Positions 10,689-30,643 of a stretch of 30,643 nt of DNA are shown in pieces. The notes under the pieces are model-generated. The model did no database searches. It saw only the letters and a program-made list of their open reading frames with translations, and was not told where the DNA came from. The translations under genes were made by a program, and so were the position numbers. Positions within the stretch are counted from its first letter, which is position 1. Every line of letters starts with the position of its first letter. Source of the DNA: an uncultured virus (IMG/VR IMGVR_UViG_3300035670_000104) (lineage: Duplodnaviria; Heunggongvirae; Uroviricota; Caudoviricetes); the IMG/VR virus record IMGVR_UViG_3300035670_000104. One strand, given 5' to 3'.

Positions 10689-10708
10689 TTCTTATTCCTT
10701 ACTAAGCT

Positions 10709-11233: not shown

Positions 11234-11252
11234 TTTTATTTTCCAATTAGAG

Positions 11253-11280: not shown

Positions 11281-11284
11281 TGTA

Positions 11285-12145: not shown

Positions 12146-12172
12146 AATTACCTCCATTAAGTTGAAAGCATA

Positions 12173-12201
12173 ATCATAGCATAGGGTCTGTCGCTTGTCA
12201 A
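12173..12201 (-). promoter_or_regulatory. Sigma70-type promoter for the HNH gene
   Basis: TTGACA-17 nt-TATGAT with extended -10 TG. Confidence 0.8.
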
Positions 12202-12216
12202 CTGTTAGAGCTACTG

Positions 12217-13296: not shown

Positions 13297-13329
13297 ATTA
13301 TTTCCTTATGTTATTTTTATGGAAATCCC

Positions 13330-13854: not shown

Positions 13855-13862
13855 TTCACTCC

Positions 13863-15320: not shown

Positions 15321-15335
15321 TCTTCCCTCTGTTCC

Positions 15336-15494
15336 TTATTCTTCTACAGCCTTCTTAGCTGCTTTCTTAGCAGGTTCTGTAAGCTTTAGCTTCTCAATCT
15401 CAATTTGCAGCTTTTCAACCAAAGCTTCTAGCTGGTTGATACGCTCTGCTACCACTGGGCGTGGTTCAAAACCACTCAGCTTTTCTTTACTCAT
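15336..15494 (-). CDS. Small coiled-coil hypothetical protein (52 aa)
   Basis: MSKEKLSGFEPRPVVAERINQLEALVEKLQIEIEKLKLTEPAKKAAKKAVEE; SD AAGGA; fills the gap between the terminator and the adaptor gene. Confidence 0.65.
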   Translation of the reverse strand: MSKEKLSGFEPRPVVAERINQLEALVEKLQIEIEKLKLTEPAKKAAKKAVEE

Positions 15495-15514
15495 CTTATC
15501 CTTCCTGTATAATA

Positions 15515-15555
15515 GACAAACAAAATGGGGAGGGAAGAATTTCCTCCTCTCCCCC
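15515..15555 (-). terminator. Rho-independent terminator after the major capsid gene
   Basis: GGGGAG-A-GGAGGA-AAT-TCTTCC-CTCCCC followed by ATTTTGTTTGT. Confidence 0.8.
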
Positions 15556-15566
15556 TTCTATGCTAA

Positions 15567-16646: not shown

Positions 16647-16686
16647 TTAAATAATCCTTCTTGTTCTTTATTATTACGTGTTACTA

Positions 16687-17136
16687 TTAGGCGATGGTGG
16701 TTTCAGCCACGATGTCTTGAGCCTTCAGCAGATGGATCAGGTTAGCTTGATCGGCAGCAGCAGTCAGACCAATAGCTGTGCAAGCAGCCTTCAGAGTTGC
16801 ATCCTTAACAGCAACATTGCCACGAACCAGAAGAGTTACCACATGGTCGCCAGTACCAGACACGTCATATTGTTCGCCCAGGCCGTTAGCAATCACCAGA
16901 GCAAATTCGTTGGTGGTGGCAAGAGCGGTGTTCAGCTTTACAGGTGCCCACTTCGTACCAGAGACAGCGTTCTTGGCGCGGAATACAGGAGTACCCAGAG
17001 TCAGCACATCGCCACTAGCCAGAGTGACGGTAGCGTCAACAGCCTTGTCAGCACGGGTGTAGCCAATGTAAGCGGAGTCAGCTTCGTGCAGAATCAGATC
17101 AGACAGCTTACGAGCTTGGTAAGTAAATTTTGCCAT
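16687..17136 (-). CDS. Head decoration protein
   Basis: 149 aa, Ala/Thr-rich, between the scaffold and capsid genes. Confidence 0.75.
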   Translation of the reverse strand: MAKFTYQARKLSDLILHEADSAYIGYTRADKAVDATVTLASGDVLTLGTPVFRAKNAVSGTKWAPVKLNTALATTNEFALVIANGLGEQYDVSGTGDHVVTLLVRGNVAVKDATLKAACTAIGLTAAADQANLIHLLKAQDIVAETTIA

Positions 17137-17186
17137 TTTATTTCCTTATTGAGAATTTATTGTTTTGTGTTTTAATCTACCAAGCT

Positions 17187-18116
17187 TTACTTAGCAGCGT
17201 ACTTCTGTTTCAGAATGGCCGCAGTGGCTTCTTCTGCTTGAGGAGCTTCAGCATTGGGGTCGCTCACTTGCTTCATTAGGTCAGACTGTTCAACAGCCTC
17301 CTTTTGACTCTTTAGAGCCTTCACGATTTCAGCAAACGCTTCGTCAGACAGAGCTTCCGTAGACTTCACCAGTTCAACAGAACCAGTTTGGATCAGAGCA
17401 GCAACTTCGACCTCACGAGCCTTCAGCACTTGTGCCTTACGAGCATCTTCAGCGGCCTTGACAATTTCTTGTACCTTAGCCAGTTCTTCCTTGCTCTTTG
17501 CGATTTCTGCTTGCAGAGCCGTAATCTCCGCATCCTTAGCTGCAACAGCTTTTTGGATTTCTTCTTGCATTTTTTCTTTCTTTTCTGTAAATGCAGCCAA
17601 TGCTTTTTGAACACGGCTGTTTGTTTCAGGATTGTTCAGAGCTTTATTTACTAGAACATACTCCCCATCCTCCAACTTATCCTTCGCTTGCTCAGAAATA
17701 ACAACCTTACCTGTTTCCACGTAAAACCATTCCTTCTCAACACTCTTGGCTTCGTCTGCAATAACATACTCTTCGTTTTGTCCGAGAGAATATGCCACCA
17801 TGTACAAACTGTTTTCACGCCAAAAGAAAGCGTTGGCATCATCGAAGTCTTCTAAATAAAGCCACTCATCGTCATCCTGAAACTTCTGCTTAATAGCAGC
17901 AGAAAGCTCCTGTTGAACTTGAGAATTAAGTTTGGCTTTCTCAATAAGAGCTAGTTGACTAGTCACTTGTTGATCTGTAATACCACTGGTACTCTTTGTA
18001 AGTAGAGTGGTTTTTAGGTTTGCTGGGCCTCCTTGGTCTTTATGCACCAGTGCAATGTGAGCACCTTCATGGTCAAAAGAAAAATTAGACAACCTGTTTT
18101 TTGCTTTATTAGTCAC
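17187..18116 (-). CDS. Capsid scaffolding protein
   Basis: Long A/E/K coiled-coil C-terminus. Probable start is GTG 18116 (SD GGAG), overlapping the protease stop. Confidence 0.75.
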   Translation of the reverse strand: MTNKAKNRLSNFSFDHEGAHIALVHKDQGGPANLKTTLLTKSTSGITDQQVTSQLALIEKAKLNSQVQQELSAAIKQKFQDDDEWLYLEDFDDANAFFWRENSLYMVAYSLGQNEEYVIADEAKSVEKEWFYVETGKVVISEQAKDKLEDGEYVLVNKALNNPETNSRVQKALAAFTEKKEKMQEEIQKAVAAKDAEITALQAEIAKSKEELAKVQEIVKAAEDARKAQVLKAREVEVAALIQTGSVELVKSTEALSDEAFAEIVKALKSQKEAVEQSDLMKQVSDPNAEAPQAEEATAAILKQKYAAK

Positions 18117-18552
18117 TAAGTTTCTCCACGGTTGCACGGCAACCAACGCTAATTCCTGTAATCTCTTCATTCAGCACGGCTTGCCACAAAGCTTCACCAA
18201 CCTCTGTTTCAGGGAAATACCATTCGGTGAGCCAAGTACCTTTTGAGATAAACTTGTCACCAATATACATATCCACAGGGGTTGTATAGGACTGGATAAT
18301 CTCAGCGTCTTGTGTTTCAACCATGTGGAAGAGGTTAGCCTTCATGCAGTGTCGATTGAAATTCTGCATACCCTTTTCAATTTCTTTAGCAGAGTATGTA
18401 TCCCCATGAGCATCCACCTCATCTGGAGCAAGAACAACAAACAAAGCTTTTCTTTCAACCTCGTTTGCTGCCTTTTCAATCTTCACAACTTCCTTCTTGA
18501 ACAGAGGCTCAAGCACATCAGAAAGAGCTTTCTTCAAATCTTCAATATTCAC
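18109..18552 (-). CDS. Prohead protease (XkdF-like / Peptidase_S78_2)
   Basis: VLAPDEVDAHGD, NLFH, KGTW and EITGISVG motifs; between the portal and scaffold genes. Confidence 0.78.
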   Translation of the reverse strand: MNIEDLKKALSDVLEPLFKKEVVKIEKAANEVERKALFVVLAPDEVDAHGDTYSAKEIEKGMQNFNRHCMKANLFHMVETQDAEIIQSYTTPVDMYIGDKFISKGTWLTEWYFPETEVGEALWQAVLNEEITGISVGCRATVEKLSD

Positions 18553-20036
18553 TATGCTGACCCTTCCGCGTTCAATGCTGTGTTATCACGCCCACTCACT
18601 GTTTTTCTAGTTCCTTCTCCAGATGGGCTAGCTAATCCTTCAGAAGCACCAGATTGGTACTGTGTAAGCTCAGACAAGAATTCTTCTCTATCTTGATCTT
18701 CCTTGAATTGAGGAGTAATACCTCCCAACCTAGAAGTGACAAAGTTTACAGCTTCTGGAGTCTTGGGGAACAATCCAACAGCAGCAGTACGTTGAATGTA
18801 CTTACCAATCTCATCAAGTGATTCTTCGCTGACTTCGCCATATTCAAACTTAGGAGTGTCTGTAGTATCCCACCCGTTCAAGGCAAACAACTGAGGAATC
18901 AGGTCATGATTTAGTTGTTCCTGAATCTGTGTAAGACGAGCTTGAACCACCATCTTAGTGACGCTATCCAACGACTCGGCTAGAGAGAACGACCCACCAC
19001 CTTCTTGACCCAGAATCAATTGAGAAGCCATCAATCCAGTGACGATTTCTTTGCGGAAGCGAGAGATAATCTTGTCCGTGTCATTGGCCTTCTGTCCCAT
19101 CACGGAGATAGCTTCAAACTCAAACATCTTATGTCCCTTTTCATCTCTGAACATAGGGAGAATGATGCTAGACTGTTCGTTGTTATTGACACTCGACATA
19201 CCACGCTGGTAGTGAGCATAAACAGCCTTGTCTTCCTCTGAAGCCTCTGGGTTTAGATATTGCGGAGGAAGGTACAACACCTTCATACCACGAACATCGT
19301 TGCTTACAGACATAGCCTCGAACTCTTCAAGGGAAGTTTTATAGCGCCATGCTCTGTAAACACTCTTCAAAGGACTAACACCTTCTGGAGAATTCTTGTT
19401 AGAATTATTCTTCACCAGAAGGAACTTCTTACGAGGAATGAATGTTGGTTGATCTGTAGTGACAGAAGTAAAATCATTTCTGTTACTCACCATCGCCGGA
19501 GACTGATAAAGTCCATCCAAGTCTCTTCCATTGTTCTTGAAATTCCAAGACACAATAGTTTCTTGAGGGATAGGGGCTAGTTTCTTTAGACCAATCAAGC
19601 CATCATTAAACTTGCTACCCTTAGACTTCTCTCTGTACCGAAACACCTTCTCGGATACAGCGAATCCATATGAGTTATGTGTTCCAAGGTAACGAATAGC
19701 TTCAGCAAAAGGATGATCCATATCAATCATCACTTGCTTCAAGAAGTTCACCTGTCTTGCTTGTTCTTCTTCCTTACCAGGAGTGGCTGCAACAGTCCAA
19801 GGAACTCTAGCAATAGCCATTTCTACAGCAGCAACAGCAGGGGCAATTGTTGCATCCTTGAGCATGAGGGAATATGTTTGCATTGCAAAGGGCCATCGTA
19901 GAGCACGATTTTCTTCTTCTGCAATATTCCCTGCAATAACTCTCACCCCGTTATTACCTGTTTGGCTAAGGCGAATTTTAGGCGCTCCTTCTCGACTTTC
20001 TTGGAAGCCGTTTTCAGGAACAATGTCTTCTTCCAT
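18552..20036 (-). CDS. Portal protein (DUF935-like)
   Basis: 494 aa downstream of terL; GSFSLAE and LNHDLIPQLFALN motifs. Confidence 0.88.
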   Translation of the reverse strand: MEEDIVPENGFQESREGAPKIRLSQTGNNGVRVIAGNIAEEENRALRWPFAMQTYSLMLKDATIAPAVAAVEMAIARVPWTVAATPGKEEEQARQVNFLKQVMIDMDHPFAEAIRYLGTHNSYGFAVSEKVFRYREKSKGSKFNDGLIGLKKLAPIPQETIVSWNFKNNGRDLDGLYQSPAMVSNRNDFTSVTTDQPTFIPRKKFLLVKNNSNKNSPEGVSPLKSVYRAWRYKTSLEEFEAMSVSNDVRGMKVLYLPPQYLNPEASEEDKAVYAHYQRGMSSVNNNEQSSIILPMFRDEKGHKMFEFEAISVMGQKANDTDKIISRFRKEIVTGLMASQLILGQEGGGSFSLAESLDSVTKMVVQARLTQIQEQLNHDLIPQLFALNGWDTTDTPKFEYGEVSEESLDEIGKYIQRTAAVGLFPKTPEAVNFVTSRLGGITPQFKEDQDREEFLSELTQYQSGASEGLASPSGEGTRKTVSGRDNTALNAEGSA

Positions 20037-20057
20037 TATTTCTCCTTATTGCAAATA

Positions 20058-22547
20058 TTAGAGAGAAACAACTTTAGGTTCTCCAATTGCTTGTTGAAAA
20101 TTTTGAATACTTCCGAGGAAGTTTGGTAGAATCTGTTTAGATGCTAGGTAAGCGAAACAATCCGAAACGCAGTCAACAAGATCATCGTGTCCTGTCTCAC
20201 CTCTTCTTCTTTGCCCATCGAAGGCTTCAAGCTCCCTATAGAAGAAGTTGTTATCTCCTCGAATATTATTATCTAAATCGTGAGCACAATTCTTTAAGAA
20301 CTTTATTCCGCCGTTTTGAGCCATTGAGGAGGCTGGTCTAAATCTGTCAAGTTTCGACGTTGAAGCCCTCATTTTCTGTGCATACAACCCTGATTCCGCT
20401 AAATCTCTGATTAACAGAGTACATGCTGCCGCTGCCGCTGGGTTAGGGTCGCTTGGAATAAGAATATCCACATTTCTATGGAGTTCTTTATCTTCCATAG
20501 CATTGTCTATGATAAACTTCTGCCATTCCCCGAATCTTATTCTAGTCCTCTTAGCGTCCAAGATAAGATAATCTCCATTCCGCATCTTTGCCATCTTAAC
20601 AGTTGCCGTATAATCGGGGCTTGGATTGCTATCACTTTTTAAAGTTCCGGCAAAGTCATATGCTCTAACTATCTTAACAATCTGTGATTCATCATAACTA
20701 GACAACTCTTCACACCAACTTCTTTGAAAGAATGATGAGCTTTCGGGTCTTGCTTCCCAATTCCCAAACAACAGAATCTCTCGCTCTACACGAGGCAGTC
20801 CGTTTAGAAATGCAATGTAAGAAGGTTGAATGTATGGATTATCATATACCGAGGCACTAATGAATCTGAAAGAGAGAGGAATATCGTTAGGATATTTTTC
20901 TTCCAACTCCTCTTTAGTATCCGCCCAAATAAGTCCATCACTTGTTCTTATGAACCACCGGATGACTCCTTGTTTAGAAGGATCAGGTCTTCCATGATTT
21001 TCATGACCTTCTGGAAACAAATACCAGTCCACGTACTGTCTGACCCAGCTATCGGGATCGGGGTTCATAGTTGCCCGCATATTGGGCTTCATGTTAGCTT
21101 TTGTACGTAAACGAGACAGAATATAGTTAAACTGACTCTCTTCAAACTGACACAATTCCTCCATTACGCAGGAAGAAATTTGAGCACCTTGGAAGTTTCG
21201 AGTATCTTCTACTCTCTCAAAGTGGGAAAACGCCACTTCAGCACCACTACTAAACTGGTACTTTAAATCTTTAATCTTAATCCTACCACCGGGATCAATA
21301 TCGGTGTAGATTGTTTTACTTTCGTCCCACACAGCCCCTGATTTAAGTAACATAGGAGTTGTTCTACGCAATGTAAGCCCACGATATAGAGGGTCGTGAG
21401 TATATTTCAAGTGGTGCATAAGACCTGCAAAAGTGTTGTGGGTTACTACAAAATCGGTAGTAACAAACAATCTATCTCCTGTTACAGAAATGCATGTAGC
21501 TTCACCTTTACCTGCACACTCAATACTCTCAATTCGATTCCCAACATCTTTTTTAACTGTACGAGATTTTTTACGAGGTAGTCTGAATAGTTCTGTTTGA
21601 TTTTTACCACGAATATAGAGTACGTAGGCATCCTTACATACTACCTTTTCACCATCCTTATTGTAGAACGTTTTCTTGAAAGTTGTGGTTACTGTAAACC
21701 CAAGACTTCTGAGAATTTCGGTAACATCAGAGGCTAAAGAATTACTTACTGTACAGAAATATGTTTTACCGTCTTTTGAGACATATCCGTCTGAGTCCAT
21801 TAGACCTTGGATAAGGGAAAACCTATCTTCAATACTTGCTGTAAAATAATCTTGTGGAATAAATTTATCATGACTCTTTTTCATATATAAGTCATATCCG
21901 ATAACCGAATCTTTTACTCCGTCAACTCTATAGGAAATCCCTCCAGAGCTTTCCCACACAACAGTAGCATACCCATCATCGTTAACACTCTGAATAATCT
22001 CCTGATCTGTAGTTGTCAGAGATATGCAATCTCCTCGGAAACAACCATCTCCAAGCAAAAGACCCATAGTGTACGGTTTGATCTTCAGTGCTACCTTTTC
22101 ACCAAATTCCAAAGGTTCTGATAACTGCACAATCGGTAAATATTTTCTACCTGATTTCAAGTTTTGTCTGTCAATATATTCTTTAATCTCGATAGTAGTT
22201 TGAACAAGTTTCTTACCATCCTGACCAGCTTTATGAAACTTCCAAAGATGCTGTCCACAGCATTTTACTTTTCTACCGTCTTGGAAAATAACTTCATAAA
22301 TATCGACTTCGCCTTGTGGGAATACCCCTGTGATATACTGGACAGAGTTATCTGGTGCCACAATTTCTTGACCAATCTCACAACTTTCGATATTGACAAA
22401 CCCCCTTGGAGTCAACACCTTCTCACCATGGAGGAGTGCTTTTCCGCCACCTGCTTGTCCACCGTAGAAACAAATATCTACCCAATCTGGAGTTGTAAGA
22501 AACATCTCCTGTGGTTTGGAGGCTGGTGCGTATACTTTACGACTCAT
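20058..22547 (-). CDS. terL: Terminase large subunit, intein-containing precursor (829 aa; about 494 aa mature)
   Basis: Walker A GQAGGGK|T split by the intein; Walker B-like CVMEEL; coupling motif ATMNP; nuclease motifs RAYDFA and HDDLVD. Confidence 0.95.
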   Translation of the reverse strand: MSRKVYAPASKPQEMFLTTPDWVDICFYGGQAGGGKALLHGEKVLTPRGFVNIESCEIGQEIVAPDNSVQYITGVFPQGEVDIYEVIFQDGRKVKCCGQHLWKFHKAGQDGKKLVQTTIEIKEYIDRQNLKSGRKYLPIVQLSEPLEFGEKVALKIKPYTMGLLLGDGCFRGDCISLTTTDQEIIQSVNDDGYATVVWESSGGISYRVDGVKDSVIGYDLYMKKSHDKFIPQDYFTASIEDRFSLIQGLMDSDGYVSKDGKTYFCTVSNSLASDVTEILRSLGFTVTTTFKKTFYNKDGEKVVCKDAYVLYIRGKNQTELFRLPRKKSRTVKKDVGNRIESIECAGKGEATCISVTGDRLFVTTDFVVTHNTFAGLMHHLKYTHDPLYRGLTLRRTTPMLLKSGAVWDESKTIYTDIDPGGRIKIKDLKYQFSSGAEVAFSHFERVEDTRNFQGAQISSCVMEELCQFEESQFNYILSRLRTKANMKPNMRATMNPDPDSWVRQYVDWYLFPEGHENHGRPDPSKQGVIRWFIRTSDGLIWADTKEELEEKYPNDIPLSFRFISASVYDNPYIQPSYIAFLNGLPRVEREILLFGNWEARPESSSFFQRSWCEELSSYDESQIVKIVRAYDFAGTLKSDSNPSPDYTATVKMAKMRNGDYLILDAKRTRIRFGEWQKFIIDNAMEDKELHRNVDILIPSDPNPAAAAACTLLIRDLAESGLYAQKMRASTSKLDRFRPASSMAQNGGIKFLKNCAHDLDNNIRGDNNFFYRELEAFDGQRRRGETGHDDLVDCVSDCFAYLASKQILPNFLGSIQNFQQAIGEPKVVSL
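21435..22439 (-). mobile_element. Class 3 intein with LAGLIDADG homing endonuclease (335 aa)
   Basis: Begins with Ala (ALLHGEKVLTP), ends VVTHN|T. WCT signature: HLW (block B), ATCISV (block F), THN (block G). LAGLIDADG motifs GLLLGDG and GLMDSDG. Confidence 0.92.
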
Positions 22548-22601
22548 CCTACTTTCCCTTCATAAATTACTTCTACAACATTACGTTGTGCGATAAATAC
22601 A

Positions 22602-22630
22602 ATTTTATCATTAGTCATAGAATTTGTCAA
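22602..22630 (-). promoter_or_regulatory. Sigma70-type promoter upstream of terL and the structural operon
   Basis: TTGACA-17 nt-TAAAAT with extended -10 TG. Confidence 0.8.
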
Positions 22631-22661
22631 TAGGGTATTCACTTTATTTTGATTATTTCTA

Positions 22662-23027
22662 TCAAATACTTTGTTGAATATTCTTTACAGCTTCAAGATA
22701 ATCCCTCACCATCTTGTCGCGTTCCCTCCCCTTAATACCAAGCAAAGCAACAGACTCACGAAATTCCTCAAAAGTCATGCAATTTAGCTCAGACTCTGTA
22801 TAAATTCGATGATCTGGAGGATAAGCACGAATAGCTTCATTACTCACCAAAGGCTTCTTAGGGTCTACCAGCAAATCCAACTCAGCAGAGAATGGGGCGA
22901 ACAAACGTGGTACTGTATTCTTACGCATCTTAGCACCCATAGCACCAAGTCTAATTAGCTCTTCCACAAATCGTACTCTGTCTGCTGTAAACACCGTAAT
23001 CTTCTGATTTACTTTTTCAAATTCCAT
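22662..23027 (-). CDS. Hypothetical protein (121 aa)
   Basis: Start placed at MEFEKVNQK (SD AAGGAAG); the longer ORF start lies inside hairpins. Confidence 0.7.
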   Translation of the reverse strand: MEFEKVNQKITVFTADRVRFVEELIRLGAMGAKMRKNTVPRLFAPFSAELDLLVDPKKPLVSNEAIRAYPPDHRIYTESELNCMTFEEFRESVALLGIKGRERDKMVRDYLEAVKNIQQSI

Positions 23028-23042
23028 AACTTCCTTTTTATA

Positions 23043-23278
23043 AACAGCTAAAGCTCCGCGAAGGAGCTTATTGAAATTAATCCCGCTTACCATCCTGCGG
23101 GGCTATTCTTTAGCGATAGCGGATTAATAAAAGCTGTACATTTGAATCACGGACTAATGTACAAATGCCGGGGAAGTTACAAATAATTATTCTTTCTGAT
23201 AGTTGGCGCTATTCAGTCTAAGTAATTTGGTAGCGTATAACTTCCCACCTTAGCCGTAAGTTTTGGTCCTAAGGCTTA
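23043..23278 (-). ncRNA. Putative structured RNA (multi-hairpin)
   Basis: No credible ORF; stems CCTTAG/CTAAGG, GGGAAGTTA/TAACTTCCC, GTACATT/AATGTAC, CAGCT/AGCTG, TTAATCC/GGATTAA and AAGCTCC/GGAGCTT. Confidence 0.5.
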
Positions 23279-23280
23279 TT

Positions 23281-23436
23281 AGATTTCAAGGGCAGGTACT
23301 GAACTCCTGCATGATCCTACTAAGATTAGCAATGTCTTAATACTCTCCGAGACACACCCAGCCTCTATCAGAGTTGCAAGCTATTTGCGGTAGCTTTTCT
23401 CTGGTCATATCAGCCTATGCATTCCTTGAAAAATCT
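23281..23436 (-). ncRNA. Putative tRNA-like RNA with a large internal insert (element B)
   Basis: 7-bp terminal stem TTCAAGG/CCTTGAA stacked on a T-arm-like GCAGG-AGTTCAGTA-CCTGC; second stem ATGACC/GGATCAT encloses two hairpins. Confidence 0.5.
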
Positions 23437-23443
23437 GCAATTT

Positions 23444-23593
23444 TCAAAACACAGTGTCAATACACTCTTCAACCGTCTTGCCATCAAGATAAGCTTCTTG
23501 AATATCTGAAATGAAGATATTAACTTGCTTCTCTGTATAGCCGTACTTTACAGCCATTGTCTTTACGCTCTCGTAATAGTCTTTAAACGTCAT
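23444..23593 (-). CDS. Hypothetical protein (49 aa)
   Basis: MTFKDYYESVKTMAVKYGY...; the upstream part of the listed ORF overlaps the neighbouring gene. Confidence 0.6.
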   Translation of the reverse strand: MTFKDYYESVKTMAVKYGYTEKQVNIFISDIQEAYLDGKTVEECIDTVF

Positions 23594-23601
23594 AACACTT
23601 A

Positions 23602-23865
23602 CTAAATTAACGAGTATCCGCCCTCGAAAGCATCGGCGGGCGAGTACGACTTGTAGCCGTCCTCGTAGACCACGTAGTAGCCGCCAACCTGGGGCTTGTG
23701 CTTGAAATACCAATCCGCTGACACAGGAAGCGGACCATAGTCTGCATCCTCAAACTTCAGAATGGCGAACTCGCTATTCGAAGAACCTTCTCCAATGGCT
23801 TTGATCTTCAGCGCCCACACCTTCTTGTGACACTGGTATTTTGGCATTTCTCTTTGTACATTCAT
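23602..23865 (-). CDS. Conserved phage protein (GYYVVYEDGYKSYSP motif)
   Basis: 87 aa, SD AAGGA; motif recalled from many phage proteins; visibly GC-richer than its flanks. Confidence 0.75.
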   Translation of the reverse strand: MNVQREMPKYQCHKKVWALKIKAIGEGSSNSEFAILKFEDADYGPLPVSADWYFKHKPQVGGYYVVYEDGYKSYSPADAFEGGYSLI

Positions 23866-23875
23866 AATTGTCCTT

Positions 23876-24223
23876 TCATTCCTTCTTAGGCATGTGAAGC
23901 TGGAACACTACAGCTCTCTCTGTCTCTTCTTCCTCTACAATGGAGGCTTCTGCTCTAGCGTCATCAATCTCAGACTTCTTGCCCTCCTCCTCAGCTTGAA
24001 CAACCTTGTGGAACTCCTTAGCAGAAGTGATTGTCCATTTAGCTGTGGAAAGCTGTTCCTTGTCTACAGGCTTTCCGTCAAGACTATCTTGCACAAGCTC
24101 CATAGCCGTTGTCTCAGCCAATTGCTTGAGCCTAGCTGCCACTTTACGTAGCTTAGAGGCTTTAGTTCCTACAGAACCAAATGGGCGTCCACGAGGACGT
24201 TTTTCTTGTTGTACTGCTGTCAT
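23876..24223 (-). CDS. Candidate terminase small subunit / DNA-binding protein
   Basis: 115 aa with N-terminal AT-hook-like KRPRGRP, helical middle and acidic tail; about 1.3 kb upstream of terL. Function is inference. Confidence 0.45.
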   Translation of the reverse strand: MTAVQQEKRPRGRPFGSVGTKASKLRKVAARLKQLAETTAMELVQDSLDGKPVDKEQLSTAKWTITSAKEFHKVVQAEEEGKKSEIDDARAEASIVEEEETERAVVFQLHMPKKE

Positions 24224-24528
24224 TGTTGTTCAAACAGTCTAGATTTCAACTCGTATCCCATATAACCCCAGAGGTCATTCTTAGAGTTCTCTACAGCGAT
24301 TTTCTCACCAATCTCCGCATTGTCGTTGGCGCTAGAAGCACTAGCAGATGGCTTTCCTGCAAGGGAGAAACCATTCTTTGTAGTCAACACAGCCCAGCGC
24401 AAGACTTGCCCTGAAACAGATACATGCTTAACAATCTCTACTGATACGATATTATCTTCCAAGTCCTTTAATGAAACTCTAGGAGCTGTAAGATTCTTGT
24501 TAACAATTTCTTGTTCGATATTTTCCAT
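24220..24528 (-). CDS. Phage Gp49/Gp66-family protein
   Basis: LTAPRV, LTTKNGF..G..SASAS..NDNAEIGEKIA and LW...GYEL match the recalled Phage_gp49_66 pattern. Confidence 0.78.
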   Translation of the reverse strand: MENIEQEIVNKNLTAPRVSLKDLEDNIVSVEIVKHVSVSGQVLRWAVLTTKNGFSLAGKPSASASSANDNAEIGEKIAVENSKNDLWGYMGYELKSRLFEQQ

Positions 24529-24531
24529 AAT

Positions 24532-24774
24532 TCATTCCTCAAAATCTAGCGTCACTTCTAGCACTTCAGCAACCTGAACAAATTCCGACTTCTTTGGAGT
24601 GTCAACTCCGTAAAAGAATTTGTCCACTTTGTTTCTATTCCAACCAAGCTCTAGGGCCAAGTCGCTAGTTGACATTCCTCTATTACGGAGAACACTAATG
24701 AAATCGGAAATAGCTGCTTCAGCGTCTAGAGGATCAACAAGCTCTGCTCGCTTTTCTTCTATATTCTTATTCAT
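24532..24774 (-). CDS. XRE-family helix-turn-helix protein (80 aa)
   Basis: LRNRGMSTSDLALELGWNRNKVDKFFYG..P......VAEVLEV; start ATG 24774 (SD AGGA). The longer ORF overlaps the tRNA. Confidence 0.72.
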   Translation of the reverse strand: MNKNIEEKRAELVDPLDAEAAISDFISVLRNRGMSTSDLALELGWNRNKVDKFFYGVDTPKKSEFVQVAEVLEVTLDFEE

Positions 24775-24825
24775 GTTATTTCCTATTGTAATAATCCCTA
24801 TGAGGGAATGCTCTTTGCATTGCAC

Positions 24826-24859
24826 AAAGAAAATGGGAGAGAATAAAACAAGCTCTCCC
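24826..24859 (-). terminator. Terminator downstream of tRNA-Gly
   Basis: GGGAGAG-N11-CTCTCCC followed by ATTTTCTTT. Confidence 0.65.
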
Positions 24860-24872
24860 TCTTGTATAAATA

Positions 24873-24948
24873 TGGAGCAGACGATCGGAATTGAACCGAC
24901 AACCACTGATGTGGAAAAACAGCGCTCTGCCAATTGAGCTACATCTGC
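24873..24948 (-). tRNA. tRNA-Gly(TCC)
   Basis: 76-nt cloverleaf: acceptor GCAGATG/CGTCTGC, anticodon loop TTTCCAC, T-loop TTCAATT, U73 discriminator, encoded CCA. Confidence 0.92.
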
Positions 24949-25158
24949 AATAAAACAGGAGTTTTGCACATTAACCAATACCGAAATATTGAAGTGTCTC
25001 CTGTGTGTTAAATATGCCCCGTAAATAGCCGCAAAGAACTACTCTGCCGAGGACTTTAGCTTACGTCTAAGCCTTCTTTCTTAAATATTAAAGTTCAACC
25101 CCTGTCCAAAACAACAATTGAAGTTTATACAGGTGTAGAGGCGACATCAGAAAGAACA

Positions 25159-25446
25159 TCACCGAATACTCTCATAAGGGAGAATTGACTCTCCTCGATA
25201 ATACAGAAATGCACAGTAGTTAGCAACATCCACTACATTTCCCTTTTCTACACTAATATGAAGAAGATTGCTTAGATGTTGTTGGGTACATTCCTCCGTA
25301 TTAAATCCTGAGTACCCTTGCTTACTCTTCTGGACTAGCCGAATCTTTTGCACCTGACTAAGATTGTCTACTGCATCCTTTTCAATCTCAGCTTCTACAA
25401 TTTTCTCAGGTTCCCAAGCTTCTCGTTGTGCATCATAATGTCCCAT
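25159..25446 (-). CDS. Hypothetical phage protein (95 aa; KG..VDVANY motif)
   Basis: Start ATG 25446 with SD AGGAG, overlapping the end of the upstream gene. Confidence 0.7.
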   Translation of the reverse strand: MGHYDAQREAWEPEKIVEAEIEKDAVDNLSQVQKIRLVQKSKQGYSGFNTEECTQQHLSNLLHISVEKGNVVDVANYCAFLYYRGESILPYESIR

Positions 25447-25624
25447 TATACAACTCCTTAGCAAAACCATCTACAATTGCTGTGTAGCCATACTTCTTCT
25501 TAGCATCGGCGTAGCTATCGGCCTTACCAATTTCCTTCATTGTAACTTCGTATTGTGCCTCACCTTTGTGGTCAACACCTGCCTTACGATAGGTCGGCAT
25601 ATATACGGCGATTTGCTTCTTCAT
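25433..25624 (-). CDS. Hypothetical protein (63 aa)
   Basis: Strong SD AAAGGAG and ATG start. Confidence 0.7.
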   Translation of the reverse strand: MKKQIAVYMPTYRKAGVDHKGEAQYEVTMKEIGKADSYADAKKKYGYTAIVDGFAKELYNGTL

Positions 25625-25684
25625 TTACTTTCTCCTTTGTTAATAATCAAACTTCTTTTTCAGATAAACTTAAATTGAATTGAA

Positions 25685-25864
25685 TGGGATAGGTGGATTC
25701 GACACCACAACATCCTATTAGCCCGGTACTGTTTTCATTGACACAATTGCCGTACTCGCGTAATACAACTAATAAGTTTGCATTAGTTTTAGACAAGACA
25801 TCTTATCATGCTTTGGAGATTAATGCATCTCTCCTAACAATACTTTCAATCTTTCTACTATCCC
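25685..25864 (-). ncRNA. Putative mini-tmRNA-like / tRNA-like RNA (element A, 180 nt)
   Basis: Acceptor-like stem GGGATAG/CTATCCC plus A; stemless D-loop; long P2 (AGTATTGTTAG/CTAATAGGATGTT); H-type pseudoknot GGAGA/TCTCC plus ATGC/GCAT; T-arm GTGG-TGTCGAAT-CCAC; 35 nt downstream of tRNA-Arg. Confidence 0.6.
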
Positions 25865-25899
25865 AAACAGAAGAACTCTCGGTAAAGAATGCTTTTGTT

Positions 25900-25976
25900 T
25901 GGTGGGCGGCGAGGAATTCGAATCCCCATAGTTCGAGGTAGAAGCTCGATTCATTGTCCAGTTATGATAGCCGCCC
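25900..25976 (-). tRNA. tRNA-Arg(TCT)
   Basis: 77-nt cloverleaf: acceptor GGGCGGC/GCCGCCC, anticodon arm TCGAG-CTTCTAC-CTCGA, T-loop TTCGAAT, 3' ACCA. Confidence 0.93.
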
Positions 25977-25981
25977 AAAAC

Positions 25982-26056
25982 TGGTATGGCGTGTTGGTTT
26001 CGATCCAACTACCAAAGTCTTATGAGGACTCCACTCTCCCATTGAGTTAACGCCAC
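25982..26056 (-). tRNA. tRNA with CAT anticodon (Met or Ile2)
   Basis: 75-nt cloverleaf: acceptor GTGGCGT/ACGCCAT, anticodon arm GAGTC-CTCATAA-GACTT, T-loop ATCGAAA, 3' ACCA. Confidence 0.9.
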
Positions 26057-26060
26057 TTCC

Positions 26061-26141
26061 TAAATGGAAGACTCTACCACAGAACTTAGGAGAAAGGAGA
26101 ATGAAAACCTAGTTCTCTTTGTGTGTAAAGCCTTCTATTTA
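26061..26141 (-). ncRNA. Putative hairpin sRNA with an anti-Shine-Dalgarno loop
   Basis: Stems TAAATAGAAG/CTTCCATTTA, GCTTTAC/GTAGAGT and AGAACT-AGG/CCT-AAGTTCT; apical loop TTTTCATTCTCCTTTCT. Confidence 0.5.
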
Positions 26142-26161
26142 AGAGACTCTTTCGAGTCTCT
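26142..26161. terminator. Perfect 8-bp hairpin (GAAA tetraloop on minus strand); terminator or processing site
   Basis: AGAGACTC-GAAA-GAGTCTCT. Confidence 0.55.
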
Positions 26162-26166
26162 GTATT

Positions 26167-26259
26167 TTATAGTCGAATTGGATTCAGGTCAATTCCGAGC
26201 CCGTACCCTTCAATCAAACCCCATCCCTCGTTTGTAATACTATCCCAACCGTCATTCAT
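26167..26259 (-). CDS. Small peptide (30 aa)
   Basis: MNDGWDSITNEGWGLIEGYGLGIDLNPIRL; SD AAAGGA; first ORF after a consensus promoter. Confidence 0.5.
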   Translation of the reverse strand: MNDGWDSITNEGWGLIEGYGLGIDLNPIRL

Positions 26260-26293
26260 AAGAATTCCTTTGTTTTTGTTGTCTATACTTACA

Positions 26294-26322
26294 ATTATAT
26301 CATCCACTTCTATATTTGTCAA
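26294..26322 (-). promoter_or_regulatory. Consensus sigma70 promoter for the tRNA/ncRNA cluster
   Basis: TTGACA-17 nt-TATAAT with extended -10 TG. Confidence 0.9.
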
Positions 26323-26371
26323 GTGTTTTATTACAGTTTGGTACAATTATTTACCTAAATGTACTTACTTA

Positions 26372-26857
26372 TCAATCCCAGAATGTATTCAGATATAGTC
26401 CAAACAAACGACACCCATTTTGAATACGAGCATGGTAGGCATCGTATAGAGCACGCTTATCTGGAATTTCTTTAAGACCGGAAGAAATCATTGTAACACA
26501 ACCACGCTCGTCTGGCTCACTCCATTCAATTTCACCAACAACATCGTAAGGCTGAGGCTCATTTGCATTGTCTGTGGCAATCTCATTCATTGCCCACACA
26601 ACCTCATCCAACACCCAATCCCACGCATCTTTAGAAAATCTTTCTTGATAAGTACCATGAAGTTCTTCTGGAACATCTTCCTTTGCAATAGCTCCGTATC
26701 CGTGAGAAGTCTCCTTCAGTTGCTTTAGGAGTGGTCCTGCAATCTGAGCAATAGTCCAAGCACAGCTCCAACTATCTTCCTTGTCAATCACAACATTGTT
26801 TGTCTTTACAGAGCCTTTCTCCTTACCACTCTTATAACGTTTAATCTTTACTTCCAT
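26372..26857 (-). CDS. Hypothetical phage protein (161 aa)
   Basis: SD GGAG; WDWVLDEVVWA and RIQNGCRLFGLY..FWD segments resemble a common large-phage family. Confidence 0.8.
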   Translation of the reverse strand: MEVKIKRYKSGKEKGSVKTNNVVIDKEDSWSCAWTIAQIAGPLLKQLKETSHGYGAIAKEDVPEELHGTYQERFSKDAWDWVLDEVVWAMNEIATDNANEPQPYDVVGEIEWSEPDERGCVTMISSGLKEIPDKRALYDAYHARIQNGCRLFGLYLNTFWD

Positions 26858-26872
26858 CTATAGACTCCATCC

Positions 26873-27052
26873 TTACGAAACTGTCACTTCATTTGTGCAT
26901 ACCGGGCAAACAATATATCTCCAAGTATCCCTGCCGCCATCAATATCAACTGTGTTTTGTTCTTTCACATCGGTGAATACGTAACTTAGCTTACTTCCGC
27001 ACTTTCTGCAAGATACTTCTCGTTCTGTCTGAGGACTTACAACTTTAACCAT
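26873..27052 (-). CDS. Zinc-ribbon protein (59 aa)
   Basis: MVKVVSPQTEREVSCRKCGSKL...YIVCPVCTNEVTVS; two CxxC motifs; SD AAGGAG. Confidence 0.75.
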   Translation of the reverse strand: MVKVVSPQTEREVSCRKCGSKLSYVFTDVKEQNTVDIDGGRDTWRYIVCPVCTNEVTVS

Positions 27053-27221
27053 TCTTCATCTCCTTCTTTGGTTTAAATTTCTCAATGACTTCCATTAGCT
27101 TTCTGTGTGCAACGTCTTGCTCAAGGAGACATCCACCACAAATAAGCCAATAACCTGTGAACTGACCACCTTCTTCTATAAGGTTTTCTGTAGCACCACA
27201 ATGCACACAACATTGTTCCAT
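27045..27221 (-). CDS. Small Cys-rich protein (58 aa)
   Basis: MEQCCVHCGA...ICGGCLL...; SD AAGGA; tightly coupled to both neighbours. Confidence 0.68.
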   Translation of the reverse strand: MEQCCVHCGATENLIEEGGQFTGYWLICGGCLLEQDVAHRKLMEVIEKFKPKKEMKNG

Positions 27222-27224
27222 TAT

Positions 27225-27590
27225 TTATTCCTTTCGGTAATTAAATCCATACTCTGTCCAATGCTCACCATCTACAACATCAGAAAATTTCTTAATCAGT
27301 TCTACACGCCACTCTGGTACGTTAGATGGAACACTCTTAATTCCCATTATCCAAGGAGTGTTTCGTTCTTCTTCAGCCTCTTCCTTAGCTCCCCAGTAGT
27401 GTTGATGTGAAACAACAACCGTCATCCCGTGGCAAGTTTGAGTCTCTAAGTCCGTTCCAGGGTACTTTACATGCCACAAGAGTACAATATCCCCTGTGTG
27501 CAGTTCTTTTTCTTCTCCCCAACGGCCATTCAGTGTAACTGGAGTCCCAACATCACACAAGCAACATTCTCCACTATAAACACGTAACAT
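27225..27590 (-). CDS. Hypothetical protein (121 aa)
   Basis: Strong SD AGGAGG. Confidence 0.78.
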   Translation of the reverse strand: MLRVYSGECCLCDVGTPVTLNGRWGEEKELHTGDIVLLWHVKYPGTDLETQTCHGMTVVVSHQHYWGAKEEAEEERNTPWIMGIKSVPSNVPEWRVELIKKFSDVVDGEHWTEYGFNYRKE

Positions 27591-27618
27591 ATTTCCTCCT
27601 TTGTTTGAACATGACTGT

Positions 27619-27648
27619 AGTGTAGCACAGATTTCTAGAACACAACAA
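27619..27648 (-). promoter_or_regulatory. Possible sigma70 promoter
   Basis: TTGTTG-18 nt-TACACT with extended -10 TG. Confidence 0.45.
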
Positions 27649-27664
27649 AGTCACTAAGTATTAG

Positions 27665-27895
27665 TCAAGAATTATACACAAGAACACCATTGCTATCTGT
27701 TTTGAATCCGTGTGAAGCCAACTCCTCTTCCCACAAGGACTTCCACTTGGTAAGCTCTTTCATAGCCTGTATGTGGCTTTCTCTTTGCGATCTTGTGATG
27801 TATGTGATGTACCTATACCACTTCAACTTCTTGAAAGAGTTTGAACTTACTCTAAGTTTTTGTACAAATAGCTCATCTTCTTTAGATACATTCAT
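27665..27895 (-). CDS. Hypothetical protein (76 aa)
   Basis: Start ATG 27895 (MNVSKED) with SD AAAGGAG; the upstream extension lies in a long hairpin. Confidence 0.68.
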   Translation of the reverse strand: MNVSKEDELFVQKLRVSSNSFKKLKWYRYITYITRSQRESHIQAMKELTKWKSLWEEELASHGFKTDSNGVLVYNS

Positions 27896-27929
27896 ATCTA
27901 CTCCTTTATATTTAATATAACTATATCTC

Positions 27930-28285
27930 TTATCCCTTGGTGAATCTTTTGAAGATACAGTTCGCCCTACTCTCATCAGCATTACCTGTATGAAAGCAGA
28001 ACCTGTAATCAAAAGAGTCACCAAGAGCTTATCCCCCGGAGCCACATGTTGTCAAGCTTTAGGCTTGATGTGTACATTTCTAGTTGTAGGTACACAGACA
28101 CAGTTGAGAATTTCTTGTCAGGTCTTCTCAAACACAATAGAGTAGGCTACAATCCTGTCTACTGCACATACTTACCTCAGTCCCTCCGCGTCTTGGACGT
28201 AGAACTTACACCGACTGTCTAGTACCTGTTGTTAAGAGATACACTACCGAAGTGTAAGAGCTATGAATGCTTTTACACATTCAAT
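27930..28285 (-). ncRNA. Putative long structured leader / ncRNA
   Basis: Follows the promoter at 28292-28320; multiple stems plus a ~95-nt rod whose G-U pairs work on the minus strand. Confidence 0.5.
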
Positions 28286-28291
28286 ACCTAA

Positions 28292-28320
28292 ATTGTACCA
28301 CGACTATGCTAAAAAGTCAA
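28292..28320 (-). promoter_or_regulatory. Sigma70 promoter (leftward)
   Basis: TTGACT-17 nt-TACAAT with extended -10 TG. Confidence 0.8.
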
Positions 28321-28349
28321 TACATAGTAAGGTAAAATGACTAAATTTG

Positions 28350-28379
28350 TTGCAAATATAGGTAGAGTTATGCTACAAT
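28350..28379 (+). promoter_or_regulatory. Sigma70 promoter (rightward 1)
   Basis: TTGCAA-18 nt-TACAAT with extended -10 TG. Confidence 0.65.
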
Positions 28380-28390
28380 AGGTCTTATTT

Positions 28391-28499
28391 CTTAAAACCC
28401 TGTACAGAACGCTCTAAAAACGATTTTAACCTCGTACCCTACCTCGGGTATTCCTGACGTAATTAAAACGTTTCTAGCCCTGTTTTGACGGGATTTAGG
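28391..28499 (+). ncRNA. Putative rod-shaped RNA
   Basis: Nested stems CCTGT/ACGGG, CAGAAC/GTTTTG, CTAAAAACG/CGTTTCTAG, TTTTAA/TTAAAA and TACCC/GGGTA; G-U pairs favour the plus strand. Confidence 0.45.
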
Positions 28500-28580
28500 G
28501 GTGTTTCTGTCGATGTTGCTTACTCACATCTTGTACTTGTGCAAAGTTTGGAAGAATTTTCAGAAAATTTCCTAGAGCTA

Positions 28581-28608
28581 TTGACAAATACGGAATTTGT
28601 GGTAGAAT
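28581..28608 (+). promoter_or_regulatory. Sigma70 promoter (rightward 2)
   Basis: TTGACA-16 nt-TAGAAT with extended -10 TG, about 30 nt before the ATG at 28639. Confidence 0.75.
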
Positions 28609-28638
28609 GGGTATAACAGATTGAGAAAAGGAGAAATT

Positions 28639-28837
28639 ATGAGCGAATGGCAACCTATTGAGACAGCGCCGAAGGATAAAAAAAATATTGGTCTGTCAAA
28701 AACGGAATTCAATAATTTCAACAGCACATGGTGTTGACGAGTATGGAAACTGGATAACAGGAGGAGGCCACATGGATTTTCTTGTTGGAGTTACACACTG
28801 GATGCCATTGCCTACGCCACCTAAAGAGGAAGACTAA
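28639..28837 (+). pseudogene. DUF551-family gene with a +1 frameshift in an A8 run
   Basis: MSEWQPIETAPKD and VTHWMPLPTPP are in different frames. Removing one A from 28678-28685 gives an intact 65-aa protein. Confidence 0.8.
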
Positions 28838-28841
28838 AACT

Positions 28842-29156
28842 ATGAAAATCACAGTAAAAGAATTGATGGAAGACATTCGTCGTCACACCATTCCAGTCGA
28901 TGTTACAGGGTATAGTTACGGAGTATTTGATGACCTGATTCCACGTTACAAAGTTGGTCTGAACTATGATGAAGTTAGTGCCGAACCTATTGTCAGTATT
29001 GTTAACTTCTATCTGAACAAGAAACTAAAAGAAATCGAGAAGACTAAGGAAGTAGGTGAAATTGTACTTACCTCTACAGAAGATGGAGAACTTGTTGCTG
29101 TAACACGGCAAGACGAAGAGGGACGGATTCTTAAACTGATTTGGAGTAAGAAATGA
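28842..29156 (+). CDS. Hypothetical protein (104 aa)
   Basis: Start MKITVKEL with SD GAGGA; C-terminal VAVTRQDEEGRILKLIW. Confidence 0.75.
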   Translation: MKITVKELMEDIRRHTIPVDVTGYSYGVFDDLIPRYKVGLNYDEVSAEPIVSIVNFYLNKKLKEIEKTKEVGEIVLTSTEDGELVAVTRQDEEGRILKLIWSKK

Positions 29157-29332
29157 ACAACAAAGAATTGGAACAACTTGTAAAGAGTGTGGTTCAGGAG
29201 GAAGATTGGGGCGAGGTTTATGATGGAAACTGTTTTCATCTAACGCCTTCTGAACTCAAGAAACTTATAAAGTTGTGCTCAACCAAAGAAAATCAAAATA
29301 ATAGAGCTTTGGCCTATAACGAAAATGAATAA
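29153..29332 (+). CDS. Hypothetical protein (59 aa)
   Basis: ATGA overlap with the upstream stop; SD GGAG; MNNKELEQLVKSVVQEEDWGEVYDG... Confidence 0.65.
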   Translation: MNNKELEQLVKSVVQEEDWGEVYDGNCFHLTPSELKKLIKLCSTKENQNNRALAYNENE

Positions 29333-29918
29333 CATTTATACAGAAATTGACACCCTGCTTACACATCACATAGATGACCAATTTGAGATGTCGGAGCTTT
29401 CTGACAGTCCTCTACTCTCTTTGCGTGTTAAAGACGGAGTAGTTGGTGTACACTGGAGAGAAAGCTTGACAGGAAATGAAGTTGAAGAGATTATTGAGAA
29501 GTACAAGTTTCGTTCTCTACTTCCCTCTTTCAACATCAACTTCACAATTCTAGGCTATGTAGAGAACAAGGAATTCTTTTTGTTTGCTCTATTCCTTGAA
29601 GGAAAGCAGCATGAGCAGTCTCCTAAAGAACGCTCGCATTTCATGGAATTGTTCAACAGTAATAGAGAAGGAGTGAAGCTACGGCATGTTCCTGTTCTTC
29701 CTTTTGTGTTGTCCCTACCAGGAGCTAAGGCAGCTTTGGAAAACGGCAGTAAATACGAAGATGTTGCCAAGTACACCATCAAAGCTATGGTAGAATTGTG
29801 TGAAGGAACAAGCCCTATGACTGGACGACCACGAAAGGGGCTTGTTATGAAATCACTTAGTTCTACGTATGCTTTTAAATGCTACAGTGAAAGTGCAATG
29901 CTAGAAGGAGATTTGTAA
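29325..29918 (+). CDS. RNA ligase (Rnl2/DRB0094-type) homologue, degenerate
   Basis: LRHVPVL and RKGLVMKS..YAFKCYS resemble the C-terminal ligase motifs (REGLVFKS..FSFKAIS), but the motif I position reads ELSDS rather than EKxDG. Confidence 0.55.
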   Translation: MNNIYTEIDTLLTHHIDDQFEMSELSDSPLLSLRVKDGVVGVHWRESLTGNEVEEIIEKYKFRSLLPSFNINFTILGYVENKEFFLFALFLEGKQHEQSPKERSHFMELFNSNREGVKLRHVPVLPFVLSLPGAKAALENGSKYEDVAKYTIKAMVELCEGTSPMTGRPRKGLVMKSLSSTYAFKCYSESAMLEGDL

Positions 29919-30247
29919 TGTCAAATGAAGAAATCATGGCTCTAGCTCAAGAGCATTGCTTGCACATCGACTTCTATCAAGGGATGGTGTATAAACCTCA
30001 ACGAGAGCCTGAAAAGTCTTGGTGTTGGACAACAATGGAAAATGGGGTGTATGCAGCTATTACAGACTGTGTAGCGAAGGTGAAGAAAATGGAAGAAGAG
30101 TTGCTAAATATTGACGCTGCAACTTCTTCCTTGAACACTATTCGTAAGATGCATGAGGTTGGTGCTGCTACAATAGAAGATGTAGAGCGTGCAGAAGAGA
30201 TTCTACGTAAAGTGTCTACTAACGTACCTAGTAAGGAGGTGTTTTGA
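29918..30247 (+). CDS. Hypothetical protein (109 aa)
   Basis: TAATG coupling with the upstream gene; SD AGGAG. Confidence 0.75.
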   Translation: MSNEEIMALAQEHCLHIDFYQGMVYKPQREPEKSWCWTTMENGVYAAITDCVAKVKKMEEELLNIDAATSSLNTIRKMHEVGAATIEDVERAEEILRKVSTNVPSKEVF

Positions 30248-30399
30248 TGTTGAATCATATTCACGCTTTTGTCGAAGGTAGGACTTCTTTTCTAGATGGA
30301 AAGTCTTTGGAAGATAATCCATATCGTGAAGGGACATTTCTCTCACAACAGTGGATTCTTGGTTGGAATCAAGGTTTGATTATTAAAGAAGGAGATTAA
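30247..30399 (+). CDS. Rmf/CrpP-like small protein (50 aa)
   Basis: MLNHIHAFVEGRTSFLDGKSLEDNPYREGTFLSQQWILGWNQGLIIKEGD has the A..G...G.....PY......W..GW pattern of ribosome modulation factor; SD AGGAGG. Confidence 0.62.
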   Translation: MLNHIHAFVEGRTSFLDGKSLEDNPYREGTFLSQQWILGWNQGLIIKEGD

Positions 30400-30400
30400 A

Positions 30401-30643
30401 ATGAGTATTGATATTAATGCTAAACTAATGTACGGACTTCCATATTGGGGTCTTGTTAAAAATCTACGGGAGGACTCTATTGAGTTGCTGAACGAGGAAA
30501 TTTATGATGGTGAATGGGATACAGCAAGCCCTTACTATGATTCTGAGATCACATCTTGGTTTATTGGGTATGCGCTCTCAGACTTTGATTCTTCTCATCT
30601 CTCACACATGATTACAGAGATGAAAGATATGGACGAGAAATTT
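30401..30643 (+). CDS. Hypothetical protein (partial)
   Basis: ATG 30401 with SD AAGGAG; open to the window end (MSIDINAKLMYGLPY...). Confidence 0.7.
   Translation, partial: MSIDINAKLMYGLPYWGLVKNLREDSIELLNEEIYDGEWDTASPYYDSEITSWFIGYALSDFDSSHLSHMITEMKDMDEKF

Follow-up and report, generated by a model that had tools for sequence, protein, structure and literature searches.

A putative structured RNA with an anti-Shine-Dalgarno loop in the leader of a phage tRNA operon

In the genome of an uncultured tailed phage, a long hairpin is encoded between a consensus promoter and a tRNA gene, and its tip displays the complement of a ribosome-binding site (RBS). Does this locus encode a functional RNA and, if so, from which strand and for what role? 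The window, by which we mean the whole 30,643-nt stretch of DNA analyzed, is part of a tailed phage with minus-strand genes from position 1 to about 28045, including those for the large terminase (with an intein-like insert), portal, major capsid protein, and tape measure. The portal is 40–46% identical to portals of Felix-O1/PAK_P1-like myoviruses of Pseudomonas. The known regulatory RNAs of phages are few, and the small RNAs found within phage tRNA regions, such as those of T4 and PAK_P3, are still without a function. For this locus, a sequence-only reading had proposed a trans-acting repressor of translation that presents an anti-Shine-Dalgarno (anti-SD) and anti-AUG loop and is released by tRNA processing.

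Organization of the promoter, hairpins, and tRNA genes

On the minus strand, the order of features is promoter, variable leader, a short hairpin (hairpin-1), a rod with an apical loop, and tRNA-Met. The transcription unit comprises the following:

26294-26322, minus strand: sigma-70 promoter, TTGACA-17-TATAAT with a TG extension (12/12 match), predicted to drive the element and the tRNAs
26162-26287, minus strand: variable 5′ leader of ~125 nt, with a 30-codon ORF (26167-26259)
26142-26161, minus strand: hairpin-1, with an 8-bp stem and a GAAA loop; adjoins the rod without a linker
26061-26141, minus strand: rod of ~28 bp in four helical segments, defined by fold and covariation
26091-26107, minus strand: apical loop of the rod, 17 nt, UUUUCAUUCUCCUUUCU
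25982-26056, minus strand: tRNA-Met(CAT), its 5′ end, the expected RNase P cut, 4 nt past the last rod pair
25900-25976, minus strand: tRNA-Arg(TCT), next in the array
25433-25650, minus strand: first protein-coding gene of the operon (63 aa; start at 25624), with a conserved initiation region
24873-24948, minus strand: tRNA-Gly

Of the 47 promoter-like sites in 10700-30643, the one at 26322-26294 alone reaches a 12/12 match. Promoters with 12/12 matches lie upstream of the element, at the same relative place, in all four loci compared (the window and the related loci L089, L091, and L048/L215). The consensus promoter previously read at this position is thus confirmed on the minus strand and conserved in relatives. 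The leader that follows it in L089 is unrelated in sequence to that of the window, and L091 and L048 are almost entirely without this segment. The 30-codon ORF within the leader had no match in a Pfam search and, for want of conservation in the relatives, was rejected as a genuine gene. Terminator prediction found none on the minus strand, and the operon continues into protein genes. For the 63-aa protein encoded by the first of these, homology and domain searches gave no informative relative.

The 89-nt segment 26057-26145 (minus strand) folds at -32.3 kcal/mol, compared with -16.9 ± 3.0 kcal/mol for shuffled sequences (z -5.15), and none of the 200 shuffles folds as well. The rod has single-base bulges and a conserved internal loop of 4–5 nt on its 5′ side. 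Its apical loop (26107-26091) carries CAUUCUCCUUUCUCCU (26103-26088), and the anti-SD core CUCCUUU occupies 26093-26099 within this loop. CUCCUUU is predicted to be unpaired with a probability of 0.98 in both the window and L089, 0.99 in L091, and 0.28 in L048; in the thermodynamic ensemble of L048, a competing upper fold pairs much of the word.

All features named in the sequence-only reading are present in the sequence, and its description was therefore accurate. These features include the ~80-nt rod (26061-26141; z -5.15), the GAAA hairpin on one side of it (26142-26161), the tRNA(CAT) on the other side (on the same strand, starting 4 nt past the last rod pair), and the AAAGGAGAAA-type RBSs before 25624 and 28639. 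The complement of an SD sequence plus start codon is also found in the loop of the window, but its CAU is absent from the loops of two distant relatives, and the wording "exact complement of doubled SD plus AUG" is a description that carries no statistic.

A separate observation concerns the word AGAGUC, which is shared by the 3′ arms of hairpin-1 and of the middle stem of the rod, both in the window and in L091 (2088-2193). An alternative conformation is therefore possible, in which the 5′ arm of hairpin-1 pairs with the other copy.

Conservation in close and distant relatives

Contigs of other sequencing runs were compared with the window over 25600-26900. An 86-kb contig (X12) has no differences from the window over 26061-26149, and its neighboring gene differs at 13 of 492 positions. 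Around the untouched rod of this contig, the tRNA block 25655-26061 is swapped for 353 unrelated letters, and 37 and 84 letters stand in place of the ORF region (26149-26252) and the promoter region (26282-26365), respectively. Another contig (X5) has 52 substitutions over the whole stretch 25600-26900 and an 11-nt deletion inside the 30-codon ORF. Based on the 40 listed of these 52 substitutions, apparently all those up to 26480, the counts are one in the 84 positions of the rod (at 26117, in the unpaired internal loop), none in the 157 positions of the tRNAs, and 30 in the 485 positions of the non-coding flanks; for the depletion in the rod, Fisher p = 0.068. The rod comparison rests on X12, X5, and L089; contig X10 has 27 differences from the window in 26054-26396. 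Finally, an IMG/VR fragment (hereafter, the twin) shows no difference from the window across 471 nt that include the element and therefore provides no comparative information.

In the metagenome contig L089, the neighboring gene is 90% identical and the rod is identical to that of the window; across hairpin and rod, 101 of 104 aligned bases are identical. Directly after the rod, L089 has tRNA-Arg where the window has tRNA-Met. Because the rod is nearly unchanged while its flanks are replaced in X12, X5, and L089, the hairpin-plus-rod is a conserved island within a mosaic region. In X12 and L089, the tRNA set is thus exchanged while the leader RNA stays fixed.

The upstream 161-aa gene has 288 homologs, and profile-guided scans yielded two more lineages with the same layout of promoter, hairpin, rod, and tRNA. 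Their neighboring genes are 46% (L091/L090) and 42% (L048) identical, and the short hairpin and the rod of L091 and L048 both differ in sequence from those of the window. The apical loops of L091 and L048 are 15–17 nt long and read GCUUUCCUCCUUUAA and AUUUUCUCCUCCUUUAC, respectively. The tRNA gene follows the rod directly in L048 and ~65 nt later in L091. With only the window and L089 as input, a covariance model matches the L091 element with 37.6 bits (E 9e-7) and the L048 element with 22.9 bits (E 2.5e-3). By covariance-model search, the element occurs once per locus.

The four-row alignment comprises no more than three independent sequence types, and its pair counts lean toward the structure, to which it was fitted. 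In this alignment, 95.0% of 141 cells form standard pairs and compensatory changes occur in 21 of the 36 pairs. Helices 2–4 contain 28 pairs, 16 of which have compensatory changes, with 94.7–100% of cells paired per helix. In the relatives, hairpin-1 has compensatory changes in five of eight pairs, and its loop varies. None of 500 column shuffles reached any of the five measures, and pairing fell to 33–53% in a control with partners slid by one to three columns. The RNAalifold consensus has an energy of -40.9 kcal/mol, with a covariation term of -7.75.

Between the window and L048, 21 of 72 paired columns are identical, compared with 11 of 17 loop columns. The sequence-only reading had made its proposal depend on a conserved loop, and the anti-SD core CUCCUUU is indeed invariant in all four rows; the "anti-AUG" CAU is confined to the window lineage. 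Judged by comparative sequence evidence, the element is a real, conserved, and uncatalogued structured RNA.

Strand, loop pairing, and possible roles

An inverted repeat arisen by chance or selfishly and without RNA function, such as a recombination scar in a mosaic region, would be compatible with a rod that is identical where its flanks are unalignable, a pattern that recent exchange could yield. It does not fit the compensatory changes that two distant lineages show at the syntenic position, the single copy per locus, or the invariant loop word; given the covariation, this explanation seems close to refuted, and we find it scarcely credible. A functional RNA could also be encoded by the plus strand, where the loop would show AGGAGAAAGGAGAAUG as an SD/GGA mimic for CsrA/RsmA or the 30S subunit, or as a mini-ORF of three codons, and hairpin-1 would act as an intrinsic terminator ending the plus-strand RNA. 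The antisense sequence folds well too (-35.7 to -42.1 kcal/mol), and a T-run follows hairpin-1 in the window and the equivalent hairpin in L048. This T-run is missing in L089 and L091, however, so that a terminator-like tail is present in two of the four loci. Moreover, the plus strand has no upstream promoter (the nearest match, 9/12, is at 25411), a start codon follows the SD-like word in the window only (none in L091 or L048), and no conserved ORF is found on the plus strand across the element. A GGA-loop RNA with such a tail and without a plus-strand promoter of its own does not resemble a sponge of the CsrB/RsmY type. In the sense strand, G-U cells number 2/3/3 (eight in total) and A-C cells 0/1/1 (two in total); read from the plus strand, the eight G-U cells turn into C-A mismatches, compared with two the other way. 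The CsrA/RsmA-binding alternative that the sequence-only reading had offered for the plus strand is disfavored by this G-U balance and by the absence of a promoter and an ORF, and a plus-strand function is, in our estimate, very unlikely. The G-U pairs and the conserved promoter favor the minus-strand RNA as the probable functional one.

The loop complements AAGGAGA, a common form of the RBS at gene starts in the window. Of the 122 ORF starts in the window, that of the 63-aa gene at 25624 ranks first as a duplex partner (-17.2 kcal/mol), and its initiation region is conserved in L089, L091, and L048. A scan of the window in sliding 30-nt segments gave duplexes of -18 to -22 kcal/mol at many purine-rich sites, as good as or better than the -18.2 kcal/mol of the RBS. 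Cognate duplexes of loop and RBS are no better than non-cognate (swapped) ones, which gives no support to co-variation between loop and RBS. These patterns support the view that the loop may serve as a generic anti-SD seed rather than one for a defined target. Contigs of the RNA run X20 gave no match on 25600-26900. Of the trans-acting repressor originally envisaged, the structure, the strand, and the invariant anti-SD core are supported, whereas the conservation of the anti-AUG part and a specific target are not.

The reading that we tentatively prefer is that the element acts as an sRNA of the tRNA-operon leader, which would be freed by RNase P and mask SD sites with its loop. Host RNA polymerase would start at the consensus promoter and transcribe the leader, the hairpin, the ~80-nt rod, the tRNAs, and the downstream genes. 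Cleavage by RNase P where the first tRNA begins, a step that follows from the established action of this enzyme at tRNA 5′ ends, would free the hairpin-plus-rod as a small RNA, which may be stable given that a long helix encloses its 3′ end. Such release is plausible because the element lies directly before the first tRNA in three of the four loci; in L091, with ~65 nt between the rod and the tRNA, RNase P alone would not trim at this place. The single-stranded CUCCUUU at the tip of the rod would then pair with AAGGAG-type SD sites of mRNAs and compete with 30S subunits, which would dampen translation. The partners may be the phage's own strong RBSs, above all that of the next gene in the operon, and host mRNAs are equally possible. 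Expression, processing, and pairing are what we infer here from the architecture described above. It counts against this reading, and needs explaining, that an RNA directed at SD sites in general would affect messages of the phage itself as well. The architecture, the covariation, and a single invariant word pointing to SD sites lead to a testable hypothesis for small RNAs of phage tRNA regions. If it is true, phages could adjust or take over translation initiation cheaply and without a protein, and tRNA processing in viruses would also serve as a route of sRNA maturation.

The strongest competing reading, which we rate only somewhat less likely, is a purely cis-acting leader of the tRNA operon, in the form of an RNase III-type stalk, a 5′ stabilizer, or an anti-termination element. 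The CU-rich loop would then be a protein contact (e.g., for S1 or a phage factor) and not an antisense seed. Consistent with such a role, the element in all four loci lies inside the tRNA transcription unit on the same strand, downstream of the promoter and ahead of the first tRNA, and control of read-through would be useful given that no terminator is predicted on the minus strand before the protein genes. The absence of target specificity also fits a role without antisense pairing, and the near-continuous helix of ~28 bp with its conserved asymmetric internal loop resembles the RNase III sites of phage T7. However, a mere processing stalk would not require seven loop nucleotides to stay invariant when its stems have diverged to 29% identity. 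The junction of hairpin-1 and the rod contains a boxA-like word, but this word is base-paired and its columns 26-27 covary with 113-114, which argues against a single-stranded NusB/E site; in addition, no Rfam leader or anti-termination family matches. A mimic or decoy of the 16S rRNA 3′ tail, made in bulk to occupy a recognizer of this tail other than mRNA, is improbable in our view. The proposed targets would be an rRNA-directed defense nuclease or toxin, an RNase that matures the 16S 3′ end, or a ribosome-silencing factor. The invariant word consists of the anti-SD core plus the following U's, which resembles the tails of 16S rRNAs, and it sits unpaired at the tip of a nuclease-resistant rod predicted to be driven by the strongest promoter of the window. 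Phage tRNAs and RNAs that neutralize defense systems are known (PMC11464382, PMC11555353). Against a decoy, the window holds no candidate partner, and nothing sets this role apart from simple SD pairing. We give a similarly small chance to the possibility that the phage supplies the mRNA-docking tail of the ribosome as a free copy, carried on a nuclease-proof rod and released from a tRNA precursor by RNase P. This copy would either reprogram translation globally through competition with the 30S subunit for every SD, or divert, as a decoy, the host factors or defense nucleases that recognize the 16S 3′ end.

Relation to known RNAs and further observations in the window

The functionally nearest known system is the ar14/cuckoo group of sRNAs, and sRNAs derived from tRNA spacers are the nearest by biogenesis. 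The loop words of ar14/cuckoo sRNAs (NfeR1 and CcsR1-4 of Alphaproteobacteria) are anti-SD and occlude RBSs without Hfq, and the stems vary while the ultraconserved anti-SD word is unpaired and pairs with translation-initiation regions (PMC10746234). A retained anti-SD word on variable stems is common to the element and to this group. The ar14/cuckoo RNAs, however, are bacterial and chromosomal, have their own promoter and terminator, consist of two to three hairpins, and carry the word CCUCCUCCC, whereas the element is one long rod with CUCCUUU, has no terminator, and is fused to a tRNA precursor in a phage genome. Each element has one anti-SD loop (with the words UCUCCUUUCUCCU, CCUCCUUU, and CUCCUCCUUU), and none such is found in the loops of hairpin-1. 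The RF02344 (ar14) model had no matches at E <= 10 in G001, which equals the window over 471 nt, and G002.

With regard to biogenesis, 3′ETS-leuZ of E. coli is reportedly the 3′ trailer of a tRNA precursor that is released by RNase E and sponges sRNAs. The likeness lies in a regulatory RNA without its own terminator that is cut from a tRNA primary transcript by tRNA processing; the element differs in being a 5′ leader with an anti-SD loop, for which release by RNase P is proposed. Long irregular hairpins with an internal loop also occur in polycistronic phage transcripts as RNase III sites of the T7 type. The element shares these traits, and the helix of at least about 20 bp with an internal loop that is a feature of RNase III stalks is present; unlike the element, T7-type sites are not known to carry a conserved apical loop word. 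As in the element, C/U-rich loops serve as seeds for G-rich SD sequences in the C-rich-loop sRNAs of Gram-positive bacteria (6C, RsaE, LhrC, and IsrR); these sRNAs differ in being bacterial, unrelated in sequence and context, and equipped with several loops.

By context, the nearest relatives in kind are the small RNAs of phage tRNA regions (PAK_P3 and T4). RNAC and RNAD are located in the tRNA region of T4. Like sRNA1 and sRNA2 of PAK_P3, they are abundant phage transcripts of ~100 nt. The two PAK_P3 RNAs are encoded beside or between phage tRNA genes (PMC4933390), and T4 RNAC and RNAD are described as still having no known function (PMC9697503). PAK_P3 falls in the same broad myovirus group as the portal relatives of the window phage. 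The small RNAs of T4 and PAK_P3 are late, whereas the promoter of the element is of the host sigma-70 type.

Searches for further members covered several collections. Among phage GenBank records, the "distant" mode found one record, which matched the tRNA only, and exact and degenerate DNA patterns on IMG/VR returned just the twin, L048, or unrelated tRNAs. In GTDB genomes, the pattern of the rod 3′ arm had eight matches, which is within chance, and none scored with model R2. The loop-plus-arm pattern had at least 112 stretches, and among 120 loci folded the rod forms in the twin only. The initiation-region pattern gave at least 120 loci, with no model R2 match at E <= 1 among the matches listed. 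Among 90 loci of distant relatives, model R2 found only L048 itself (L181-L212 were folded only and lie outside this search), and it found nothing in Limnohabitans phage DC31 (classified as Pakpunavirus) or Pseudomonas phage M1. The DNA comparison extends to the loci named above; the nearer protein relatives P0003-P0060 (45–58% identical, on Logan/ENA contigs of 86–93 kb) lie outside it. A cmscan of 25850-26350 against Rfam at E <= 10 gave no family match for the element, ar14 included, and sub-threshold matches to the TMV pseudoknot, TCL6, and Yfr20 were judged to be due to chance. Within the accessible portions of the literature searched, no anti-SD hairpin in a phage tRNA leader is described.

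Several other features of the window were observed. The initiation region of the 63-aa gene (25625-25650, minus strand) reads UAU[UC]AACAAAGGAGAAA and is conserved in all lineages, in which the neighboring proteins are only 42–46% identical; it also has a sub-threshold match to the Rfam family freshwater-2 (19.1 bits, compared with a cut-off of 49.9). Upstream of tRNA-Gly, a 44-nt intergenic block (24979-25022, minus strand) is kept in L089 (91%) and L215 (82%) and is also contained in a longer match in L091. The block may represent a regulatory site; the 210 nt around it have no significant fold (z -0.99). Between tRNA-Arg and the 63-aa gene (25695-25887, minus strand), acceptor-like ends and a T-arm-like hairpin are recognizable by eye ~190 nt apart, in a region with no call by ARAGORN or Rfam. 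At the same place in L089 (2390-2468), there is a weak match to a class-II tRNA-like sequence (19.8 bits, E 0.054) that ARAGORN missed. These tRNA-like remnants may be decayed or interrupted tRNA genes.

On the plus strand, a DUF551-type gene (28639-28837) appears to be split over two frames. One frame, of 32 codons, begins with a start at 28639 that is preceded by a strong RBS, and the C-terminal motif of PF04448 (24.6 bits) lies in an overlapping frame (28658-28837); the split could be a frameshift, either programmed or due to an assembly error. Finally, the terminase (829 aa; 20058-22547, minus strand) has LAGLIDADG_3/Hom_end domains at about residues 230-319, before Terminase_6N/6C, and these homing-endonuclease domains look like an intein-type insertion.
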